From positions 476 to 64,475 of the forward strand of contig JACAFE010000034.1 of NCBI GenBank assembly GCA_013388435.1: 64,000 nt of DNA. The letters are read 5' to 3'. Shown here piece after piece: positions 3,544-62,286 of this stretch. Positions within the stretch are counted from its first letter, which is position 1. Each line of letters opens with the position of its first letter. Under the pieces are notes generated by a model. It worked only from the letters and a program-made list of their open reading frames with translations, was not told the DNA's origin and searched no databases. Source of the stretch: Nitrospirota bacterium (GTDB taxonomy: Bacteria; Nitrospirota; Thermodesulfovibrionia; Thermodesulfovibrionales; SM23-35). The translations under genes and the position numbers were made by a program.

Positions 3544-4842
3544 TCACATCTTTCTTCTGTCAATAACTCTTCTAAATTTACCATGTTCAATTTCAAGAGT
3601 CTTTTTTTCAACAGGTTTAACTTCAACAGAAAAGCCGAGTTCAGCAATGAGTTTCGTCCTTATGCGTTCAATGAAATCTTTCTGTTTTCTGACCTGATCA
3701 AAAAAGATTGATTCAGAAACCCCGACAAGAACAGTTAATTCATCCATCACCCCCTTTCTTTCCACAATTATCTGGTAATGAGGCTCGGTTCCTTCAATTT
3801 CAAATAATACTGATTCAATCTGAGAGGGGAAAACAGTTATTCCCCTTATCTTGATCATATCATCTGTGCGCCCCATAACCTTGCTCATTCTATAGAATGT
3901 TCTTCCACATTTACACGGTTCGGATATAATGCTTGTCAAATCCCTTGTCCTGAAACGTATAACAGGGAAAGCTTCCTTAGTCAGTGTGGTAATAATAAGT
4001 TCTCCTGTTTCTCCTTCAGGCAATGGGGTAAGAGTTTCAGGGTCAACAATTTCAACTAAAAAATGGTCTTCATTAATATGTAATCCATTCCTTTCAAGAC
4101 ACTCGCCAGCAACTCCGGGCCCCATGACTTCGCTTAATCCATAATTATCAGTGGCAATTATTTTTAACTTTTCCTGGAGTTCATTCCTGATCGCCTCAGA
4201 CCATGGCTCTGCGCCAAAAAGACCATATTTTAAGGATAAGGAATTTACATTTATATCCATTTCCTTTATTGTTTCAGCAATTGATAATGCGTAACCAGGA
4301 GTACACATCAATGCAGTAGTTTTAAAATCCTGCATTATTTTTACCTGTCTTCGAGTGTTCACCGTGGATATTGGAATTACGGATGCACCGATTCTTTCTG
4401 CTCCATAATGAAAGCCGAGAGCTCCGCTGAAAAGTCCGTAATCAAAAGCAATCTGTACAATGTCATTTTGTGTAACACCTCCTGCAACAAGAATTCTTGC
4501 AGCAAGATTTGACCAGGTTTTAATATCATTCCTTGTATAACCAACTACTGTCGGCATCCCTGTTGTACCAGAAGAAGTCTGTATTCTCACCACTTCTCTC
4601 ATTGGAACTGCAAACATGCCGTATGGATAACTCAATCTCAGATCATCTTTTGTAGTAAGAGGAAGTTTTCTTAAGTCTTCAAGTGAGCGAAATGTGTCAG
4701 GATCTATACCGAGTTCGTCAAATTTTTTCCTGTAGAAAGGCACATTCATGTAAACTCTAACTAATGTTGCCTGAAGCCTTTCGAGCTGCAATTGCTGAAG
4801 AGCTTCTCTGCTGATACATTCTTTCTCAGGTTCCCAGTACAT
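3544..4842 (-). CDS. paaK: Phenylacetate-CoA ligase family aryl-CoA ligase (copy 1)
   Basis: 432 aa with a GGAGG RBS. It carries the N-terminal EALQQLQLERLQ motif, the AMP-binding motif TSSGTTGMPTVV, YGLSEVMGPGVA, and the C-terminal GKFRRVIDRRK. It is paralogous to the ORFs at 10756 and 12513. Confidence 0.85.
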   Translation of the reverse strand: MYWEPEKECISREALQQLQLERLQATLVRVYMNVPFYRKKFDELGIDPDTFRSLEDLRKLPLTTKDDLRLSYPYGMFAVPMREVVRIQTSSGTTGMPTVVGYTRNDIKTWSNLAARILVAGGVTQNDIVQIAFDYGLFSGALGFHYGAERIGASVIPISTVNTRRQVKIMQDFKTTALMCTPGYALSIAETIKEMDINVNSLSLKYGLFGAEPWSEAIRNELQEKLKIIATDNYGLSEVMGPGVAGECLERNGLHINEDHFLVEIVDPETLTPLPEGETGELIITTLTKEAFPVIRFRTRDLTSIISEPCKCGRTFYRMSKVMGRTDDMIKIRGITVFPSQIESVLFEIEGTEPHYQIIVERKGVMDELTVLVGVSESIFFDQVRKQKDFIERIRTKLIAELGFSVEVKPVEKKTLEIEHGKFRRVIDRRKM

Positions 4843-4876
4843 AAGCTTCCTCCACTTAATTTAAAATCAAATAAAA

Positions 4877-5611
4877 TCAAACCTTATAATCAACATCCCT
4901 GCCTAAATATGCTCTCTGCACATCTCTGTTTAAAAGCAAATCCTCTGCATTGCCCTGAAGTATTATTCTGCCTGTTTCAATTACATAACCTGTATTCGCT
5001 ATTTTCAAAGCACTTCTTGCATTTTGTTCAATAAGGAGAACTGTTAACCCAAATTTATCTCTTAGCTCAACTATATATCTAAAAATCTCCTTAATTATTA
5101 TCGGAGCAAGTCCCATACTCGGTTCATCGAGCAATAGCAATTTTGGTTTAGCCATTAAAGCTCTGCCGATTGCAAGCATCTGTTGCTCTCCTCCTGAAAG
5201 TGTTCCTGCAAGCTGCTTTCTTCTTTTTTTCAAAACAGGAAATATATTATAAATATCTTCCGCATCATTTTTTATTTCCGAGCGATTTTTAAAAGTATAA
5301 CGGTTGTATGAGCCGATTATTAAATTGTCTTCAACGCTTAGAGGACCGAATATTAGCCTCCCCTCCGGAACATGCGATATGCCTGCTCCGACAATTGTTT
5401 CTGGATTCATTTTTGAAATATCTTTTCCATCAAATGTTATGCTTCCATTAGAAAGACGATTGATTCCTGAGATTGTCCTTAATAATGTTGTTTTACCCGC
5501 TCCGTTTCCACCGATTAAAGCAACTATTTCTCCTTTGTTAACATGCAAAGAGACCCTTTTAATAACATGTAATTTACCGTAAAATATATCTACATTCTTA
5601 AGTATTAACAT
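4877..5611 (-). CDS. livF: Branched-chain/hydrophobic amino acid ABC transporter, ATP-binding protein LivF type
   Basis: Walker A GGNGAGKTT, signature LSGGEQQMLAIGRAL and Walker B LLLLDEPS. Start chosen at MLILKNVDIFYGK (ATG 5611), which overlaps the livG stop by 14 nt. Confidence 0.85.
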   Translation of the reverse strand: MLILKNVDIFYGKLHVIKRVSLHVNKGEIVALIGGNGAGKTTLLRTISGINRLSNGSITFDGKDISKMNPETIVGAGISHVPEGRLIFGPLSVEDNLIIGSYNRYTFKNRSEIKNDAEDIYNIFPVLKKRRKQLAGTLSGGEQQMLAIGRALMAKPKLLLLDEPSMGLAPIIIKEIFRYIVELRDKFGLTVLLIEQNARSALKIANTGYVIETGRIILQGNAEDLLLNRDVQRAYLGRDVDYKV

Positions 5612-8273: not shown

Positions 8274-9434
8274 CTATTTCAAAATTTCCCAATCGCCATT
8301 TTTTACAACAACCATTTCAAAGGCAGTTTTATCCAGCCCGCAATGGTCTTCAGGAGACATATTGAATATGCCGCCGGTTCCCGGCCATTTCTTTATTTTT
8401 GTCTCAATATAATCTCTGATTTTTTTCTTGTCAGGTCCTACTTTCTTCAAAGCTTCGACTATCATCATTATAGAATCATAGGCATGACCGCCGAATGTTC
8501 CGGGTTCGCCTTTGTATTTTGCTTCATAGTCTTGAGTGTATTTTTTCAATAAAGCCTTCTGAGGATGTTTATCAGGAAGCTTATCCCAAACAACAAGTCT
8601 GCCAAGGGGAGCAATAACGCCTTCTGCTGCTTTACCAGCAAGTTCTATATTTTTCTTACTGCCCCATCCATGACTTTGATATAAAGGAATACCCATTTTG
8701 AGTGCACTCCAGTTTTTTGTAACTATAACCTGACCCGGACCAACTGACCAGTTAATTACTGCCCGGGCACCTGAAGCTTTAATTTTTGTAAGCTGTGTTG
8801 TCATATCAGAATCTTTTGGTCCATATTTTTCATCTGCAGTAATTGTAATTCCATATTTTGGAGCCATATCATGCAAAGCTTTTCTTCCAGCGTCTCCAAA
8901 ACCTGTAGAAATTGTGATAATTCCAACCTTAGAAATGCCCTGCTTTTTCATATAACCATAAATTGCTTCTACTGCGCTTGTATCATACTGGGGAGTTTTA
9001 AAAATCCAGTATCTTTCTTTAACAGGCATTGTAATTGGAGCGCCTGCTGCGCATGATATTAAAGGTGTCTTAGCATTATTCATGATTGGAACCAATGCCA
9101 TTGATTCGCCAGTTGTGGAAGGACCGATAATAGCAAGAACTTTGTCATTCTCAAGGAGCTTTTTTGCTGATAAAACTGCCTGGGTTTCGTCACTTTTTGT
9201 ATCCTCAATTATTATTTCCAGTGGATGACCGTTAATACCGCCTGCTTTATTGATCTGTTCTTGCAACATCAAAGCGGTATTTTTTTCAGGTTCACCAAGA
9301 AAAGATGCAGGTCCTGTAACAGCAAAGACCGCTCCTATTTTGTAAGGTTCTTTTGCCTCAGCATTCTGCAAAAACAGAAAAACAGATGCTAACCCTAATA
9401 CAATCAATACAAAAACAGCTCCTGCCTTTTTCAT
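8274..9434 (-). CDS. livK: Periplasmic amino-acid-binding protein (LivK/LivJ family, type 1 PBP)
   Basis: 386 aa with a signal peptide (MKKAGAVFVLIVLGLASVFLFLQNAEA), then YKIGAVFAVTGPASFLGEPE, which is typical of Leu/Ile/Val-binding proteins. Confidence 0.85.
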   Translation of the reverse strand: MKKAGAVFVLIVLGLASVFLFLQNAEAKEPYKIGAVFAVTGPASFLGEPEKNTALMLQEQINKAGGINGHPLEIIIEDTKSDETQAVLSAKKLLENDKVLAIIGPSTTGESMALVPIMNNAKTPLISCAAGAPITMPVKERYWIFKTPQYDTSAVEAIYGYMKKQGISKVGIITISTGFGDAGRKALHDMAPKYGITITADEKYGPKDSDMTTQLTKIKASGARAVINWSVGPGQVIVTKNWSALKMGIPLYQSHGWGSKKNIELAGKAAEGVIAPLGRLVVWDKLPDKHPQKALLKKYTQDYEAKYKGEPGTFGGHAYDSIMMIVEALKKVGPDKKKIRDYIETKIKKWPGTGGIFNMSPEDHCGLDKTAFEMVVVKNGDWEILK

Positions 9435-9526
9435 AAAAAACCTCCTTAAAAGAAAATTTCAGGGATTTTAAAATAATCATTCCCTGTTTATATGATTTTA
9501 AAATAGATTGTTCTTTTATTTTATTT

Positions 9527-9958
9527 TTACAGGGAAGAAATCTCTTCACCTTGAATTATTTTAACGCCTGATTTTTTTAGGACATTGACCGCTTTTTCAG
9601 TATCATCGAAGCGAAAAATCACAATAGCGTTTTCCCCGCTTTTCTCTACAAAAGCATACATATATTCAACATTTATCCCTTCATCTTTGATAATATTGAG
9701 TATACCGGATAATCCACCCGGTCTGTCAGGAACTTCTATCGCAACCACTTTTGTTTTTTCAACAGTAAAGCCATTAAATCTTAAAACATTTTTTGCTTTC
9801 TCTGTATCATTAACAATTAATCTTAAAATCCCGAAATCAGCGGTATCGGCAAGATATAACGCTCTTATATTTATACCTGCATTGGAAAGGATACCTGTTA
9901 CTTCTGCGAGTCTTCCAGATTTGTTTTCAATAAAAATCGATAATTGCTCTACATCCAT
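9527..9958 (-). CDS. Stand-alone tandem-ACT domain protein (copy 1)
   Basis: 143 aa: [44 protein letters not shown] plus a second ACT repeat. It is paralogous to the ORFs at 12058 and 13823 and is the first gene of the minus-strand liv operon. Confidence 0.8.
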
Positions 9959-19838: not shown

Positions 19839-21473
19839 ATGAAACATATTGATATATTTATAGCAAATGGATTGATCATTGACGGCTCTTTATCTGAACC
19901 TTTTGAGGGATGCATAGCTATTTCAGGAGATAAGATTTCTTTTATTATAAAGAAAAATTCCGCAAAAAATATTTTTAATGCAGATAATTTTATAGATGCA
20001 GAAGGAATGGTTATTTCTCCGGGATTTATTGATACCCACGCGCATTCTGAATTTACTCTCCTTGCAGATCCACGCGCAGAAGCCAAAGTCTGCCAGGGAA
20101 TAACCACAGAAATTAATGGAAATTGTGGGCTCTCAGCAGCTCCCCTGTATGGTGAAGCCTTTGAACATAGAGAATCTGATCTCAAAGAATATTGTATCAA
20201 AGAGAGATGGCATGATTTTAACGAATATTTTATGTTGCTCAAAAATAGAGAACCTGCTTTGAATTTTTTATCTCTAACAGGTCACGGAAATATAAGAGCA
20301 TCTGTTATCGGGTATAAAAATAAAAAACCGGATAGTCTGGAAATGAAAAAAATGCAGGAGCTTCTAAGAAAAAGCTTCACTGAAGGTTCCGCAGGTCTTT
20401 CTACGGGTTTGATTTATCCACCGGGAGTCTATTCGGATACTGAAGAGCTAATAGACTTATTAAATAATTCAGACGTTAATTCAAGCAAAACTGGCATATA
20501 TACTTCTCATATCAGAAGCGAAGGTGACCATCTTATTGAAGCTGTTGAAGAGTTGATCAGAATAGGTGAAAAAACAGGTGTGCCCGTGCATATATCCCAT
20601 ATAAAAACAAATGGTAAGGAAAATTGGCACAAAATTGATGATGTAATCTCTCTGATTGAAAATGCACGTAACAATAAAATTAAGATAACCGGCGACCGTT
20701 ATCCTTATATAGCTTCTTCAACAGACCTTGATACTATTTTACCTTCATGGGCTTATGAAGGAGGGGCTAAAGAAGAATTAAAAAGATTGAAAGACAGTAA
20801 GATTGTCAAGGTCTTAAAGCAGCAAATTATTGACAGACATCCTGAACCGGAATACTGGGAAAATATTACTGTATCATCAGTAGTTAGTGAAAAGAACAAA
20901 TGGATGGAAGGAAAAACAATTTCGCATATCGCAAACAGTAGAAAATTAAATCCCTTAGATGCATTAATAGAATTACTCGTTGAAGAGAAAATAAGGGTTG
21001 GAGCGATTTTTACAGCCATGAATGAAGATAATCTTAAACGCTTTCTTTCATTACCTTATATAATGATCGGGACCGACAGTTCAGCACGTAGTTTTAGTGG
21101 AATTACATTCAGGGGTAATCCTCACCCGAGAGGATTCGGGAGTTTTCCAAAATTCGTGGGCAAGTATGTTAGAGACAAATCAATAATGGAATTAAAAGAA
21201 GCCATATTTAAGATTACCTCGCTTCCTTCGGAAACATTCGGACTGCAAAATAGAGGACTTATTAAAGAAGGATTTTATGCGGATATAGTTATTTTTGATT
21301 ATAAAAAAATTCATGATAATGCAACCTTTGAAAAACCTTTTCTGAAACCATCAGGCATTCAATATGTATTTATAAACGGAAAACCTGTTTTATATGAGGG
21401 CAAAATTACTGGTATCAGACCGGGAAGAATTTTAAAACCCATACCAAAAAGGCTTGAAAATAAAAATAATTAA
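19839..21473 (+). CDS. D-aminoacylase-type amidohydrolase (N-acyl-D-amino-acid deacylase family)
   Basis: 544 aa with SPGFIDTHAHSE, a central HISHIK and a C-terminal ADIVIFD motif, the typical architecture of the family. Confidence 0.75.
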   Translation: MKHIDIFIANGLIIDGSLSEPFEGCIAISGDKISFIIKKNSAKNIFNADNFIDAEGMVISPGFIDTHAHSEFTLLADPRAEAKVCQGITTEINGNCGLSAAPLYGEAFEHRESDLKEYCIKERWHDFNEYFMLLKNREPALNFLSLTGHGNIRASVIGYKNKKPDSLEMKKMQELLRKSFTEGSAGLSTGLIYPPGVYSDTEELIDLLNNSDVNSSKTGIYTSHIRSEGDHLIEAVEELIRIGEKTGVPVHISHIKTNGKENWHKIDDVISLIENARNNKIKITGDRYPYIASSTDLDTILPSWAYEGGAKEELKRLKDSKIVKVLKQQIIDRHPEPEYWENITVSSVVSEKNKWMEGKTISHIANSRKLNPLDALIELLVEEKIRVGAIFTAMNEDNLKRFLSLPYIMIGTDSSARSFSGITFRGNPHPRGFGSFPKFVGKYVRDKSIMELKEAIFKITSLPSETFGLQNRGLIKEGFYADIVIFDYKKIHDNATFEKPFLKPSGIQYVFINGKPVLYEGKITGIRPGRILKPIPKRLENKNN

Positions 21474-21489
21474 GCCAAAAAAAGCAGTC

Positions 21490-21862
21490 GAAATAATGCA
21501 GATGTTGCGAAATTGAAAAATGCTGAAGGCTGAAGTATGAACTAATTTCTATTTTGTTAAGGGGTATTAGGGGTCGTATATTACTTTGTAATTTTGTTGT
21601 TTACTTATACTTCAGCCTTCGGCCTTCTTTTTGTGCGCATTTCGCTTTGCAGTTTTAATTAAACGCTTAACACGATGAACGCAAAAAACGCAACAAACGC
21701 TATAACGCTATAAACGCTATAACGCAATAAACACTATAACGCAATAACGCTATAAACGCTATAAACGCAACAAACGCTTTTTGCCTTCAGCATTAGATAG
21801 TTTATTTTGTTTCATAATTTTAATCATTAACATTTTATAATGTTATTATTGGGGTTATAGTC
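21490..21862. repeat. Mosaic intergenic repeat element, copy A (inverted relative to copy B)
   Basis: Terminus GAAATAATGCAGATGTTG (21490-21507). Inverted pair GCTGAAGGCTGAAGTAT (21522-21538) and ATACTTCAGCCTTCGGC (21607-21623). It also holds a CCCCTTAACAA-type module, TGCAGTTTTAATTAAACGC, a tandem array, GCTTTTTGCCTTCAGC and a TAGTTTATTTTGTTTCATAA module. Confidence 0.85.
21661..21778. repeat. Tandem 8-9 nt array (complement of GCGTT(T)AT(T/A)), about 12-14 units
   Basis: Read directly: ...ATGAACGC AAAAAACGC AACAAACGC TATAACGC TATAAACGC TATAACGC AATAAACAC TATAACGC AATAACGC TATAAACGC TATAAACGC AACAAACGC. Confidence 0.9.
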
Positions 21863-22632: not shown

Positions 22633-23754
22633 ATGATAAGCAGAGAAGAACTTAAGGAAATAGCAAAAATAAGAGGTAATGATGCATATTTTGTTAGCCT
22701 TTATCTTAATGTGAATCCAGTCACAAATGTTAAGGACAATTATGTAATACATGTTAAGAACATGCTCAAGCAAAACGTAGAAAAACTTGATAAAGTGATA
22801 ATGAAAAGCATAAGCCGTGACTTTGAAAAAATTGAATCATATATTCTCACAAATAAAAAGGTATTTAAAAAAGGCCTTGCGATAATCAGTTGTGATAAGA
22901 AAAATTTCTGGAAAGAATTCCATCTTTCAATTCCTGTCAGGAACGATATAATAATTGATACAACACCATATATTAAACCATTACTGGATATTTTAGACAA
23001 TTATCAGAGATACGCTATATTACTTGTTGGCAGGGAATACGCAAGATTATTCATGATTCATCTCGGAGAAATTGAAGAATATATTGAAATATATACAGAA
23101 GGAGTTCCGGGAAGGCATAAAAAAGGCGGCTGGTTTTCTTTGTCGGAAAAAAGTTATGAAAGACACATAGATTATCATGTTGAAAGACACTTGAAGGATG
23201 TCCTTAAACAGCTTGATACAATAATGTCAAAAGAATATGTTGGCAGGTTAATAATAGGTGGTTCCGAAGATGCTGTTTCAAGGGTAAGAACAATGTTGCC
23301 TCATACTATATCTGAAAAGATAATAGGCACTTTTCATGCAGATATGAATGCTACTGGCAAAGAAATACTTGAAAAAACAGAACCGATATTCAGAGCTTAT
23401 GAAAATATGAAGGAATCGGAAACCATCGAAGAAATATTAACAAAAGCCATGAAAAATGAGAATGCAGTAATAGGAATTGAAGATGTTATGAACGCTATTC
23501 AGGAAGGACGTGTTATGAAACTTGTCTTGCTAAAAGATTTTAGCATTGAAGGACTTTTATGTAAAAATTGCGGACATCTTACAATACAGAACATAACATC
23601 CTGTCCTTATTGCAAAGGAGAGGTAGAAAAAGCAAACTATGTAACTGACCTTATTGCCCAGAGAGCTATTGAACAGGGTGCTTTTGTTGATATTGTTTAT
23701 GACAACCCGAAACTCAAGGAAACAGGTGGCATAGGAGCTATTTTAAGATTTTAA
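22633..23754 (+). CDS. Bacterial eRF1/Pelota-like protein (baeRF-type), GGQ replaced by GGW, with an inserted CxxC..CxxC zinc ribbon
   Basis: 373 aa. By eye it aligns with the eRF1 middle and C domains: [33 protein letters not shown] versus eRF1 [42 protein letters not shown] versus [28 protein letters not shown]; and the C-terminal GGIGAILRF versus GGIGGILRY. The zinc ribbon is [20 protein letters not shown]. Confidence 0.65.
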   Translation: [373 protein letters not shown]

Positions 23755-25316: not shown

Positions 25317-25345
25317 CTCTGTATAAGTAAGCTATAACTTTAATC

Positions 25346-25708
25346 TGAATAATGCAGACATAGTTCATAGCTCATAACAAGGCTAAAGGCAAAAAGCGTT
25401 TATTGCGTTATAGCGTTTATTGCGTTTATAGCGTTATTGCGTTATAGCGTTTGTTGCGTTTTTTGCGTTATTGTGTTTAATTAAAACTGCACGGAGCACG
25501 GCGCAACAACAAAGGCAAATAACAACCCCCTAACCCCCTTAACAAAGGGGAAATCTGGCAAATAGCTAAGAGCAAAGAGCGAATAAAAAAGGCTGAAGCC
25601 AAATAGATAAGAGAAAATAACTTTTTACTTATGAGCGAAGCTCATACTTCAGCCTTCAGCCTAAAGCCTTCAGCCTTTTATGAGAAATGTCTGCATTATT
25701 TGGGTTAA
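25346..25708. repeat. Mosaic intergenic repeat element, copy B (complete, with terminal inverted repeats)
   Basis: Left end AATAATGCAGACAT..CTCATAACAAGGCTAAAGGC (from 25348). The right end GCCTTCAGCCTTTTATGAGAAATGTCTGCATTATT (25666-25700) is its reverse complement and is followed by TGGGTTAA. Confidence 0.85.
25396..25472. repeat. Tandem 8-9 nt array GCGTT(T)AT(T/A), 9 units
   Basis: GCGTTTATT GCGTTATA GCGTTTATT GCGTTTATA GCGTTATT GCGTTATA GCGTTTGTT GCGTTTTTT GCGTTATT, followed by GTGTTTAATTAAAACTGCA. Confidence 0.9.
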
Positions 25709-27284: not shown

Positions 27285-27337
27285 TATAAGGATTGTTTGT
27301 TTAACCCAAAAAATGCAATTAATATTATAGTCTTTTT

Positions 27338-28105: not shown

Positions 28106-28159
28106 TATATGTCTTTCATTATATAGTATTTTATATTCACACCTTATGCTTTGTACTTT

Positions 28160-28317
28160 ACCCGAAAATGCATTTGAAACAATGCAGACATTGCTCATAA
28201 AAAGGCTGAGGGCTTTAGGCTGAAGTAGCAAATAGCGAAGAGCGAAGAGCTTATAGATAATGACTCTATGCTCTTTGCTATTGGCTATTGCCCGTGTCTG
28301 ATTTATTCTGGGTTAAC
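28160..28317. repeat. Mosaic intergenic repeat element, short copy
   Basis: ACCCGAAAATGCATTTGAAACAATGCAGACATTGCTCATAAAAAGGCTGAGGGCTTTAGGCTGAAGTAGCAAATAGCGAAGAGCGAAGAGC ... GCTCTTTGCTATTGG ... GGGTTAA. It shares modules with copies B and C, and its right end touches the stop codon of the pilT-like gene. Confidence 0.8.
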
Positions 28318-39512: not shown

Positions 39513-39592
39513 TAAATTATTTGTAGTTTATCTTTCTTTTTGCTATACTTTAACTAAATATAATAATTTAACCCGAAAAAATGGAGGATAAT

Positions 39593-40021
39593 ATGAAAAA
39601 ATTAATAGTAGCTTTTATTATTGTTTTAGTATTCAGTCTTACAGCTTTTGCACAGACAGGAATGATGGGTCAGGGCATGCAAATGGGTAATACTCAGCAG
39701 ATGCCCATGATGCAATGTCCAAAAATGCAAATGATGCATGGCCAGGGAATGATGCAGGGCCAACAAATACAGGCAACTCATTGTCAGGAAATGATGCAGA
39801 TTATTACTAATTTAATTTCTATGCAAGAAAAAATTGTTTCAGGAGTAAAACCCGAAGAAAAAGACAAAATGTTACAGGAAATAAAAGAAATGAAAGACAG
39901 GGTTCAAAATATGGCTAATATTTGCAAATGCATGATGCAAATGCAACCATCCGCTCCCCAGTCTCCTGCAACTGACGTCCCTGGCACACAGACACCCTCA
40001 CCTTCAGAGCACAAACATTAG
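39593..40021 (+). CDS. Exported Met/Gln-rich protein, putative periplasmic Cu(I)-binding protein
   Basis: Start ATG 39593 behind GGAGGA, with signal peptide MKKLIVAFIIVLVFSLTAFA. The mature part is packed with M, Q, H and C (GMMGQGMQMGNTQQMPMMQCPKMQMMHGQGMMQG...CKCMMQMQ). It lies upstream of copA. Confidence 0.6.
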   Translation: MKKLIVAFIIVLVFSLTAFAQTGMMGQGMQMGNTQQMPMMQCPKMQMMHGQGMMQGQQIQATHCQEMMQIITNLISMQEKIVSGVKPEEKDKMLQEIKEMKDRVQNMANICKCMMQMQPSAPQSPATDVPGTQTPSPSEHKH

Positions 40022-40066: not shown

Positions 40067-40134
40067 TAACTCATACAGGGTAACCCAAAAATACAGACAT
40101 TGCTCATAGCTCATAAAAAGGCTGAAGGCAAAAA

Positions 40135-40274
40135 GCGTTTATTGCGTTTATTGCGTTTATTGCGTTTATTGCGTTAATGCGTTTATTGCGTTATTGCGTT
40201 TATTGCGTTATTGCGTTTGTTGCGTTTATAGCGTTTATAGCGTTTATAGCGTTATTGCGTTTATTGCGTTCATC
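40135..40274. repeat. Tandem 8-9 nt array GCGTT(T)AT(T/A), 16 units
   Basis: 4x GCGTTTATT, GCGTTAAT, GCGTTTATT, GCGTTATT, GCGTTTATT, GCGTTATT, GCGTTTGTT, 3x GCGTTTATA, GCGTTATT, GCGTTTATT, GCGTTCATC. The array resumes at 40384-40407 after the hairpin insert. Confidence 0.9.
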
Positions 40275-40280
40275 AAATTT

Positions 40281-40375
40281 AATGCTTCGCATTGGAAGTG
40301 AGACCCGCTTTGCGGGTCTGGAATTGAGTGCCGAAAAACGGCACTGGAAGTTAGTCGCTCTGGCGACTGGAATTT
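40281..40375. other. Array of four unrelated stem-loops, each followed by GGAA(G/T)T (candidate structured RNA or protein-binding module)
   Basis: AATGC-TTC-GCATT GGAAGT; AGACCCGC-TTT-GCGGGTCT GGAATT; AGTGCCG-AAAAA-CGGCACT GGAAGT; AGTCGC-TCTG-GCGACT GGAATT. All stems are perfect Watson-Crick. Confidence 0.5.
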
Positions 40376-40634
40376 GTCAAACTGTTTATTGCGTTTATTA
40401 CGTTTATCAAATAGCAAAGAGCAAATAGCGAATAAAAAAAGGCTGAAGCCTAAAGCCTTCAGCCTATGATAGTTTATTTTGTTTCATAAATTGAGTTATT
40501 GCAAGTAAACAACTATCTAATCTCCATGACAAAGGAGGAGCAAAAGGGAATTGTTATCGGAAAATAAATTTACAACATCTGCACTATTTCAATTGTATGT
40601 TTATGGTTAACCCAATTTATTTAAAAGGAATATT

Positions 40635-43759: not shown

Positions 43760-43770
43760 AAAAGTTCTTC

Positions 43771-43807
43771 AACCCAAAAAATGCATTTGAAATAATGCAG
43801 ATGTTGA
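43771..43807. repeat. Solo terminal module of the repeat family
   Basis: AACCCAAAAAATGCATTTGAAATAATGCAGATGTTG fills the 51-nt gap between glyA and nrdR. Confidence 0.8.
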
Positions 43808-45506: not shown

Positions 45507-45567
45507 CCGAAAATTAGAATACCTTAATATTATCTGACAGGTTCTTTTGAAGTCAAGAACACATATC

Positions 45568-56777: not shown

Positions 56778-56886
56778 CTGAAGCGTAAGACTCAGAGATA
56801 AAATAGGCAACTATATTTATGATACAAGATAAAGCTATATTCCTTTATTGAGGTAGTTTATTTTGGTTCATAAATTGAGTTATTGC
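56778..56886. repeat. Second repeat family (hairpin + TAGTTTATTTTGKTTCATAAATTGAGTTATTGC module), copy 1
   Basis: CTGAAGCGTAAGACTCAGAGATAAAATAGGCAA...TAGTTTATTTTGGTTCATAAATTGAGTTATTGC (56854-56886). It is collinear with 61995-62114. Confidence 0.8.
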
Positions 56887-56950
56887 CAGATGTGCTATTT
56901 TCATAAAACAAAATTATTAATTTTTATCTTAATTTTCAGTATAACCGTGG

Positions 56951-61019: not shown

Positions 61020-61874
61020 TTGAAAAAGTTTCCTTTTATTGTTATAGTAACTGGGCTTTCGGGCTCTGGCAAGACCGTAGCGCTTAGAGCCCTTGAAGAT
61101 TCAGGTTTTTTCTGTGTTGATAATCTGCCGATTGCATTAATAGAGGCTTTTGTTACTGAAGTTTCCTCAAGCTCTGAAATACGCGACATAGGGATAGGTA
61201 TAGATATAAGGGAAAAAGGGTTTTTGACTGATGTTGAAAATGTTATAAAAGCCCTGAAAAACCAATTCAATACAGAAGTACTTTTTCTCGAAGCCGAGCA
61301 GGATGTTTTACTAAGACGTTTTAAAGAGACTCGAAGGCCGCATCCTTTGCAGGGAAATATTGAAGATGCCATAAAAATAGAAAAAGAAAGGCTTCTGGTC
61401 TTAAGAGAAATCGCTGATAGAATCATAGATACTTCTTCATTTACACCACATCAGCTAAGAAGATTAATTACATGCCAGTTTAATCTTGCCCAGGATAAAG
61501 ATTTTATGACAGTTGTGTTAATTTCTTTTGGATTCAAATTTGGTGCGCCCCAGAACCTTGACCTGCTTTTTGATGTGCGCTTCCTGCCGAACCCGCATTT
61601 TATTCCTGAATTAAAAAATTTAAAAGGAACTGACAAAAAAGTGGCTGATTTCGTGCTAAAAAATAATTTAGCAAATGTTTATATAAAAAAAATCAAAAAT
61701 CTTATAGATTTTTTGATTCCGAATTATATAAAAGAAGGGAAAACCTACCTTACAATAGGAATCGGCTGCACAGGCGGGAATCACCGCTCCCCTGCAATTG
61801 TAGAAAAACTTGCTAAAATCATTAAAAAACATCCTGTAAAATTAAATATTGTTCACCGAGACATAACTGTTTAA
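61020..61874 (+). CDS. rapZ: RNase adapter protein RapZ (YvcJ/YhbJ family P-loop protein)
   Basis: 284 aa with a TTG start. It has the P-loop TGLSGSGKT, then FCVDNLP, DVRFLPNPH and IGCTGGNHRS motifs. Confidence 0.9.
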   Translation: MKKFPFIVIVTGLSGSGKTVALRALEDSGFFCVDNLPIALIEAFVTEVSSSSEIRDIGIGIDIREKGFLTDVENVIKALKNQFNTEVLFLEAEQDVLLRRFKETRRPHPLQGNIEDAIKIEKERLLVLREIADRIIDTSSFTPHQLRRLITCQFNLAQDKDFMTVVLISFGFKFGAPQNLDLLFDVRFLPNPHFIPELKNLKGTDKKVADFVLKNNLANVYIKKIKNLIDFLIPNYIKEGKTYLTIGIGCTGGNHRSPAIVEKLAKIIKKHPVKLNIVHRDITV

Positions 61875-62114
61875 TCCAAAAAATGCATTTCACTAAAAAA
61901 TGCGTTGCCATGAATATTTCTATACATAATAAACATGATTCTATAATGCTGGCAATAATTCAATTTATGAAACAAAATCACGGGTCTTTTTATACTGAGG
62001 CTGAAGTCTAAGCGTAAGCCTCAGAGATAAAATATGCAATCACATCAAAATATAAAATAAAGCCATGTTCCCATATTAAGGTAGTTTATTTTGTTTCATA
62101 AATTGAGTTATTGC
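61871..62114. repeat. Composite intergenic repeat: terminal module plus inverted pair of the TTTCATAAATTGA module flanking a hairpin
   Basis: TTAATCCAAAAAATGCATTT (61871-61890). GCAATAATTCAATTTATGAAACAAAAT (61952-61978) is the reverse complement of ATTTTGTTTCATAAATTGAGTTATTGC (within 62082-62114). Between them lies the hairpin CTGAGGCT..AGCCTCAG (61995-62024). Confidence 0.85.
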
Positions 62115-62286
62115 CTGATATGCTATTTTTATAAATCCGAATAATGCTATATCGCCATAAAATTTAAGCATAAGCTATTTAGAATATAAATATTTATGCT
62201 ACAATATAATCAAAGATAATTTTAATTTGTATCTTATCAATCGTTATTTATAATCATTTTTTTGACAACTTTATATTGGGGAAAAG

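Follow-up and report, generated by a model that had tools for sequence, protein, structure and literature searches.

The window, i.e., the complete stretch of 64,000 nt of Nitrospirota DNA analysed here, has a GC content of 31-39% and carries housekeeping genes: those for branched-chain amino-acid transport, amidases, DegQ, lptB-rpoN-hpf-rapZ, glyA, nrdR, metG and a copper ATPase. The closest named homologues of its proteins occur in Thermodesulfovibrionales/Nitrospirota MAGs. One unusual gene (22633-23754), located between the GATase and solute-binding protein genes, specifies a 373-aa protein with a Pfam baeRF_family10/3 domain (bacterial/archaeal eRF1-like). No Pfam match was obtained for the 146-aa ORF at 39581-40021. 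Nearly all genes in the window are housekeeping genes by Pfam, and none of them encodes a transposase, integrase or RAYT, in agreement with the original prediction made from this DNA.

Repeats in the intergenic DNA of the window

Four large elements (named A to D) and four end stubs (E to H) share the same two termini: a long end, TTAA-CCCAAAAAATGCATTTGAAATAATGCAGATGTTGC, and a short end, TTAA-CCCAAATAATGCAGACATTGC (Table 1). The four stubs are solo long-end remnants, while the large copies measure 160-531 nt. Together, the repeats make up ~35% of the intergenic DNA of the window and explain its four largest gaps. Self-BLAST and repeat finding show modules common to the copies near 21.5, 25.5, 28.2 and 40.3 kb, in both orientations, as had been proposed, and all the sequences quoted in the original prediction were found where it had placed them. 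TRF detects arrays of 8, 9 and 17 nt as well as 7-nt units.

The 22-mer AATGCATTTGAAAYAATGCAGA of the long end has three matches in the window at no more than three mismatches, where 0.02 are expected, and a count of three was reached in none of 100 shuffles. Using nhmmer profiles of the ends, trained solely on elements of other genomes and applied to the window with a cut-off of E < 0.02, we recovered eight termini: five long ends (43771-43806, 21470-21512, 40554-40609 on the minus strand, 28161-28195 and 61871-61909) and three short ends (25677-25708 on the minus strand, 25341-25368 and 40081-40107). Intergenic DNA amounts to 8.0% of the window, and all eight fall within it. The shuffles and the other-genome profiles rule out chance or low-complexity matches, and a purely local duplication is ruled out by the same ends occurring in other genomes and metagenomes; the original prediction had named both as outcomes that would speak against it. 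CRISPR-like arrays were likewise discarded (the 8-9-nt units run head to tail without spacers according to TRF), as were integron attC sites, on context, the neighbours being housekeeping genes in conserved synteny.

Table 1. Repeat elements and end stubs in the window, with their parts from left to right and the evidence for each.
Feature	Coordinates	Strand	Composition	Evidence
Element A	21470-21858	+	Long end 21470-21512; GCTGAAGG hairpin 21522-21623; 8/9-nt array 21660-21778; half second-family repeat 21798-21817; degenerate short end GGGGTTAT	Profile, long end E = 1.4e-8
Element B	25340-25708		Short-type ends on both sides; start TTAATCTGAATAATGCAGAC; array 25395-25479; CCCCCTTAACAAAGGGG hairpin; CAAATAGC/AAGAGC units; GGCTGAA units 25647-25677; terminus GTCTGCATTATTTGGGTTAA	Ends, E = 8e-8 and 1e-3
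Element C	28157-28316	+	Long end TTTACCCGAAAATGCATTTGAAACAATGCAGACATTGC; degenerate short end ...TTCTGGGTTAA	Profile and 22-mer
Element D	40080-40610	-	Inverted: short end at left; GGCTGAAGGC; 9-nt array 40135-40270; four GC hairpins 40283-40382; terminator-like hairpin 40440-40465 (minus strand); half second-family repeat 40470-40502; long end at right	Profile
Stub E	43769-43806	+	Solo long end TCAACCCAAAAAATGCATTTGAAATAATGCAGATGTTG, nrdR-glyA gap	E = 2.6e-11
Stub F	27301-27319	+	TTAACCCAAAAAATGCAAT, between degQ and the phosphopantetheinyl-transferase gene	Alone weak, E = 0.14
Stub G	39568-39583	+	TTAACCCGAAAAAATG	Weakest member; profile not significant
Stub H	61871-61909	+	TTAATCCAAAAAATGCATTTCACTAAAAAATGCGTTGCC; TTAA contains the rapZ stop codon	E = 0.014
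Second inverted-repeat element	61949-62117		28-30-nt TIR GGCAATAAYTCAATTTATGAAACAAAAT around a 109-nt core	Repeat finding (96%), self-BLAST

Closer inspection of the individual copies amends the original prediction in several details. The copy on which it centred, element B, is real and starts at 25340 (TTAATCTGAATAATGCAGAC) rather than at 25346. The inverted pair of 17 nt in element A exists but matches at 16 of its 17 positions. At 39568, only TTAACCCGAAAAAATG (39568-39583) is left, which is not significant by itself and for which the support comes solely from the relatives; it stands 10 nt upstream of the ATG at 39594 in the annotated ORF 39581-40021. The long end of element D occurs 24 nt upstream of the ATG of the copper-ATPase gene. 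The copies had been described as strictly intergenic. This holds in general, but three of them share a stop codon of 3 nt with their terminus: the long-end TTAA of element A contains the TAA of the upstream amidohydrolase gene (21471-73), TTA in the short end of element C serves as stop codon for the minus-strand T2SSE gene (28313-15), and the third (61872-74) belongs to stub H. In relatives, two further stop codons fall within a terminal TTAA.

The four GC hairpins of element D (40283-40382) have different stems, the last three each being followed by CTGGAA and the first carrying GGAA in its loop. The cluster is strongly structured (z = -4.7 on one strand and -5.2 on the other) and was seen only in element D among all sequences compared.

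The modules listed in the original prediction did not set apart GGCAATAAYTCAATTTATGAAACAAAAT, which is part of a second inverted-repeat element. Modules of this second family occur in elements A and D and at 56829-56907, and a complete copy is present at 61949-62117, with 89% identity over 166 nt to a stretch in another metagenome (L032, 14436-14601). Its flanks show no clear duplication. ORFs in the repeat region at 61.9-62.2 kb do not exceed ~42 aa; a small ORF, MKQNKL, in reverse orientation to the second-family repeat was dropped, its reading frame not being conserved.

The canonical unit and its copies in other genomes

Further copies, which the original prediction had suggested looking for, are extant: the same termini occur in other genomes. 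A scan with the 22-mer through 185,579 species genomes gave real matches in three Nitrospirota MAGs, eight stretches in all, six of them on different contigs of DYFC01, mostly at contig ends. The same scan in the JGI metagenomes yielded 17 real stretches, with a GC content of 33-47%. Four of the 29 matches (L011, L021, L028 and L033) were excluded as apparently unrelated sequences with no other features of the element.

DYFC01 (loci L005-L013, L039 and L042) is a Tomsk MAG ("Tomsk_35_41", GCA_020725385.1), and loci L040 and L041 are from FWPV and FWPU, respectively. Although DYFC01 is labelled "Nitrospira japonica", the label looks wrong in view of the 35% GC implied by its name, its synteny with the window and a protein identity of ~90%; its homologues carry Thermodesulfovibrionales names. 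A third, unrelated MITE-like repeat also occurs in this MAG (L039, ~9340-9550 and ~4740-4900), with ends GAGCAATTCAYGG...; in the metG-rpiB gap, it has the direct repeat CAAGAATACAT on its flanks, and the window has a clean empty site there (45507-45567).

In the Thermodesulfovibrionales/Nitrospirota genomes and the metagenomes, the canonical unit of the family measures ~185 nt (individual copies 80-330 nt), with a long end on one side of a variable core (60-100 nt) and a short end on the other. The ends are conserved across copies, and the conservation of the 60-nt long end is very high over the whole range of 33-47% GC, while the core differs from copy to copy. The arms pair over ~42 bp in nine diverse copies, with the second AATGCA box that the long end carries protruding as a 14-nt bulge, which bears out the predicted dispersed, non-coding family bounded by inverted repeats. 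Covariation in the arms is almost nil (covariation term 0.04; a single pair changed on both sides in more than one copy, i.e., in four of nine), so that this extensive pairing fits terminal inverted repeats (TIRs) recognised by a protein better than a selected RNA structure.

In DYFC01, copies are located at at least five unrelated loci with different flanks and are 93-100% identical, including the core, which indicates a recent amplification. The mosaic copies of the window appear to derive from this simple ~185-nt element common in related genomes. Other modules of the window (the arrays, the GGCTGAAGG units, the CCCCC hairpin and the second-family repeat) are present in the relatives L031, L032 and L040-44 too. 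Moreover, for the species of the window itself, short-read assemblies with 99.8-99.98% identity stop at the arrays, at stub E (43800) and at the second-family repeat (56876, 40473 and 61979-61980); three of them break at 61979-61980, inside the second-family repeat and ~70 nt downstream of stub H. These ends at the modules imply that the modules are multi-copy in the window's own genome as well. Locus L031 (1657-3002) includes a tandem pair of paralogous ORFs (~220 aa each, with 55% identity over 95 aa), and either ORF adjoins a mosaic element whose long end has diverged (TTAACCCGAAAAATGCAGTTGAAATAACGTGGATGCTGCG); the arrangement seems to be a segmental duplication that took in the element.

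Strain L046 is 99.3-99.8% identical to the window, depending on the segment. The flanks of the elements are identical in the two and the indels occur solely within A, B and C: the array in A is 34 nt shorter, B is 98 nt longer and includes a duplicated module, and C is 7 nt longer by one more GGCTGAA unit. Similarly, the number of hairpin units differs between two assemblies of another species. These differences between strains in their arrays are read from short-read metagenome assemblies, which are prone to misassembly of tandem repeats.

Target site, empty sites and nesting

Most copies read TTAA|CCC...GGG|TTAA, so that the recurrent motif TTAACCC is composed of TTAA and the terminal CCC of the element. 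Exact TTAA flanks some 30 of the 42 distinct termini, the remainder being one base off. Every junction is equally consistent with a duplication of TA and with one of TTAA, yet the outer T and A of TTAA show a conservation far above that expected from base composition, which implies a target preference of at least TTAA. As evidence for target-site duplication, the flanks have to be read with the reservation that TTAA may belong to the inverted repeat; the sole exact duplication is around a palindrome of 15 nt rather than around a full element. A canonical copy in locus L015 reads GAG-TTAA-CCCGCCTCAGGCGGG-TTAA-ATAAA, where the sister copy in L031 reads GAG-TTAA-ATAAA at the same place, and we interpret this difference as an insertion nested in the L015 copy, with TTAA duplicated (or as a 17-nt insert with a duplicated TA). 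A similar unit occurs beside a long end in L013. Such minimal palindromes between two TTAA (L015, 1296-1318; L013, 6103-6125, CCCTCCTTAGGCGGG) may represent the shortest sequences on which this insertion mechanism can act. One stem of the 40283-40382 cluster in element D (CCCGCTTTGCGGG) resembles them.

A comparison of empty and filled orthologous sites had been proposed as a check, and the syntenic loci compared, with ~90% protein identity to the window, do include sites at which one genome carries an insert and another lacks it. The gap that holds element D, 613 nt in the window, is 15 nt in DYFC01 (L039) and carries a different mosaic of 211 nt in FWPU (L041). The gap of element C is filled in the window, while in DYFC01 (L042) the convergent genes overlap at CAATTAACCGG, where the single TTAA of the empty site aligns with the TTAA at the right end of the window element; in FWPV/FWPU, the gap carries a different mosaic of ~580-610 nt. 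L042 and L043 provide a further pair of empty and filled sites. The empty sites are found in genomes diverged by ~10% at the protein level, a distance at which deletion and independent gain are not separable, and no clean presence/absence of a full-length element with identical flanks was seen within a species among the strains compared.

Orthologous gaps also differ in the remnants they carry. In the nrdR-glyA gap, the window has only a long end and FWPV/FWPU (L040/L041) only a short end, while DYFC01 (L039) has neither, a pattern that fits the decay of one ancestral insertion. In the gap between degQ and the phosphopantetheinyl-transferase gene (stub F), a stub of the short end, ATAACCCAAATAATA, occurs in the Tomsk MAG. 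Between rnc and the gene of 141-146 aa, the relatives (L039, 14846-15454; L041, 5662-6253) harbour an extra gene for a 55-aa YHS-domain protein together with elements; at the corresponding place in the window (39513-39580), the YHS gene is absent and stub G is all that remains, which suggests that the gene was lost by a deletion ending at the element terminus.

Nature and origin of the family

The window repeats are copies, decayed and nested, of a small non-coding element of the mobile type that recurs across a group of sulfate-reducing Nitrospirota. We hold it probable (roughly 0.7) that they represent a MITE-like family of transposable elements of Thermodesulfovibrionales (Nitrospirota). 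In kind, the family is a bacterial MITE like Correia/NEMIS of Neisseria, RUP of Streptococcus pneumoniae, ERIC/IRU and Nezha of cyanobacteria, with a modularity like that of BOX and BIMEs. It shares with the former group a length of ~100-200 nt, the lack of coding capacity, long TIRs, the folding of the whole unit into a hairpin, an intergenic location that is often at gene ends, many copies per genome, a short AT target and the lack of a transposase of its own. The target flank of Correia, RUP and Nezha is TA. The Nitrospirota family differs from these elements in its phylum, in its TTAA rather than plain TA flanks, in its asymmetric ends (with the extra AATGCA box) and in its heavily nested and mosaic copies. 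BOX of S. pneumoniae and the BIMEs of E. coli are likewise modular, mosaic intergenic repeats in which the number of internal units varies by copy or strain, but they are not bounded by TIRs of 40-55 nt with TTAA flanks. We found no sequence similarity to known bacterial MITEs (plasmid and phage BLAST, Rfam, literature strings), and literature searches returned no account of MITEs in Nitrospirae or Thermodesulfovibrio, no text with the sequence strings of the family and nothing relevant on bacterial TTAA MITEs.

Three other origins were weighed against a transposable element. The GC-rich palindromes (GGCTGAAGGC/GCCTTCAGCC, CCCCCTTAACAAAGGGG) are clustered, in both orientations and in variable number, and the mosaic make-up resembles that of BIMEs; the palindromes could then be the active units of a REP/BIME system, served by a single-copy RAYT (a Y1 transposase), and the long ends would be incidental. 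The feature conserved across genomes, however, is the TIR of 40-55 nt flanked by TTAA, while the palindromes are limited to some lineages and, as judged from their sequence, lack a conserved GTAG-like head. BIMEs consist of REP palindromes tied to RAYT, neither of which is seen here; the window and those related loci that are annotated contain no Y1/RAYT gene. The family thus appears to fall outside the REP/BIME definition, and we consider such a system very improbable. Of the "BIME/MITE-like" label given in the original prediction, the second half is retained and the first is not: REP-type palindromes are not what the units consist of, and TTAA-flanked TIRs of ~40-55 nt form the ends. Module shuffling, the duplicated module in the L046 copy of B, changes in unit number and the different mosaics in the same gap of different species are all products expected of recombination or slippage, and homologous or illegitimate recombination, together with slippage, might have spread and shuffled the repeats within a small set of ancestral intergenic sequences, without any transposition. 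This is an unlikely account of near-identical 185-nt copies with defined ends at unrelated loci of one genome, of TTAA at the flanks of most termini, of a nested insertion with a duplicated TTAA and of the same ends in genomes of very different GC content.

Nor do we give much credit to a functional role of the elements as structured RNAs or as regulatory DNA that selection maintains at gene ends, for example as terminators, mRNA-stabilising hairpins or small RNAs. The high conservation of the 60-nt long end between 33 and 47% GC would be in line with it, and so would the terminator-like hairpin at 40440-40465, the structured hairpins at 40283-40382 and two U.G/G.U positions that pair on the top strand only; however, the wobble positions are common to all copies, which reduces them to one inherited event, the core is variable and the arms hardly covary. 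Long ends adjoin gene 3' ends in 16 of 23 cases, but the elements occur in both orientations, and the raw counts (16 against 7 for the long end, 12 against 10 for the short end) are weakly skewed and not clearly uneven. Against a conserved function, presence varies between close relatives at housekeeping loci. Rfam returned only tRNA at the gathering score and nothing relevant even at E <= 1, and promoter-like and terminator-like sites do not exceed their counts in shuffles. The missing Rfam match, the lack of promoter or terminator enrichment, the weak orientation skew and the variable presence at housekeeping loci lead us to favour selfish DNA with incidental effects, e.g., the parting of the 146-aa gene from the copper ATPase gene.

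If the repeats are MITE-like transposable elements, the ancestral unit of ~185 nt would have had the long end TTAA|CCCAAAAAATGCATTTGAAATAATGCAGATGTTGCGAAAAAATTTATTTTTCGAT and the short end ATCGAGTTAAATAAATTTTTGAGCAATGTCTGCATTATTTGGG|TTAA, separated by a variable core of 60-100 nt. A transposase encoded elsewhere would bind the AATGCAGA boxes and insert the element at TTAA, duplicating TTAA or its central TA, as the comparison of loci supports. Where a T precedes a TAA stop codon, the two form TTAA and the duplication would regenerate the stop, which could explain the surviving copies at gene ends. The TTAA sites of the elements themselves would then receive nested insertions (as in the one case in L015); hairpin units and repeats of 7-9 nt would grow and shrink by slippage or recombination, as seen between strains with the reservation made for their assemblies; and deletions would leave solo ends, as in the orthologous nrdR-glyA gap. 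Nesting, repeat slippage and end-leaving deletions in combination may have produced the mosaic copies of this window.

The search for an autonomous partner covered several sets of sequences. Neither the window nor ~200 kb of related loci yielded an autonomous element or a transposase with such ends, and there was none among the nine genome and 20 metagenome stretches carrying the long-end 22-mer. Similar DNA is absent from the plasmid and phage collections (BLAST) and from the viral contigs (scan). A PHROG screen of 94 neighbouring ORFs taken from the related loci gave nothing obvious among the matches listed (25 of 129 families), and an all-against-all comparison of these ORFs yielded no transposase-like paralogues. 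Since no partner transposase was found, mobilisation in trans is something we infer.

The termini offer one lead. TTAA flanks with CCC...GGG termini are the hallmark end structure of piggyBac elements, and the eukaryotic piggyBac superfamily and its MITEs share the TTAA flanks, the CCC start and the GGG end with the Nitrospirota family. IS1380-family ends begin with CC and come with duplications of 4-5 bp. The likeness to piggyBac/IS1380 does not extend beyond seven bases at the terminus and the target. IS1380-like prokaryotic transposases have been paired with piggyBac (PMC5718144; PMC10813416). There is a small chance that the ends reflect a piggyBac-like, TTAA-specific bacterial transposase, IS1380-like or unclassified, encoded in Thermodesulfovibrionales and possibly capable of seamless excision; the empty L042 site with its intact TTAA would then be the product of precise excision and not a site that was never filled. 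No piggyBac or IS1380 transposase occurs in the window or in the related sequences examined. A MITE of the IS630/Tc1-mariner type, with a TA duplication and the element read as ACCC...GGGT, is consistent with every junction here. The piggyBac link is a lead and not a classification, because IS630-like TA duplication fits all junctions equally well and no transposase was identified.

The family is ordinary in kind and opens no new class of system. It nevertheless occupies about one third of the intergenic DNA of the window, and short-read assemblies of the lineage break at its repeats. It parts genes that are adjacent or overlapping in relatives, i.e., the 146-aa gene and the copper ATPase gene, and the phosphopantetheinyl-transferase (PPTase) and T2SSE genes. 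As repeat numbers differ between near-identical strains, they may serve as a strain marker and may be a source of regulatory variation. Finally, ends of the TTAA/CCC...GGG type in a bacterium point to a transposase worth seeking.
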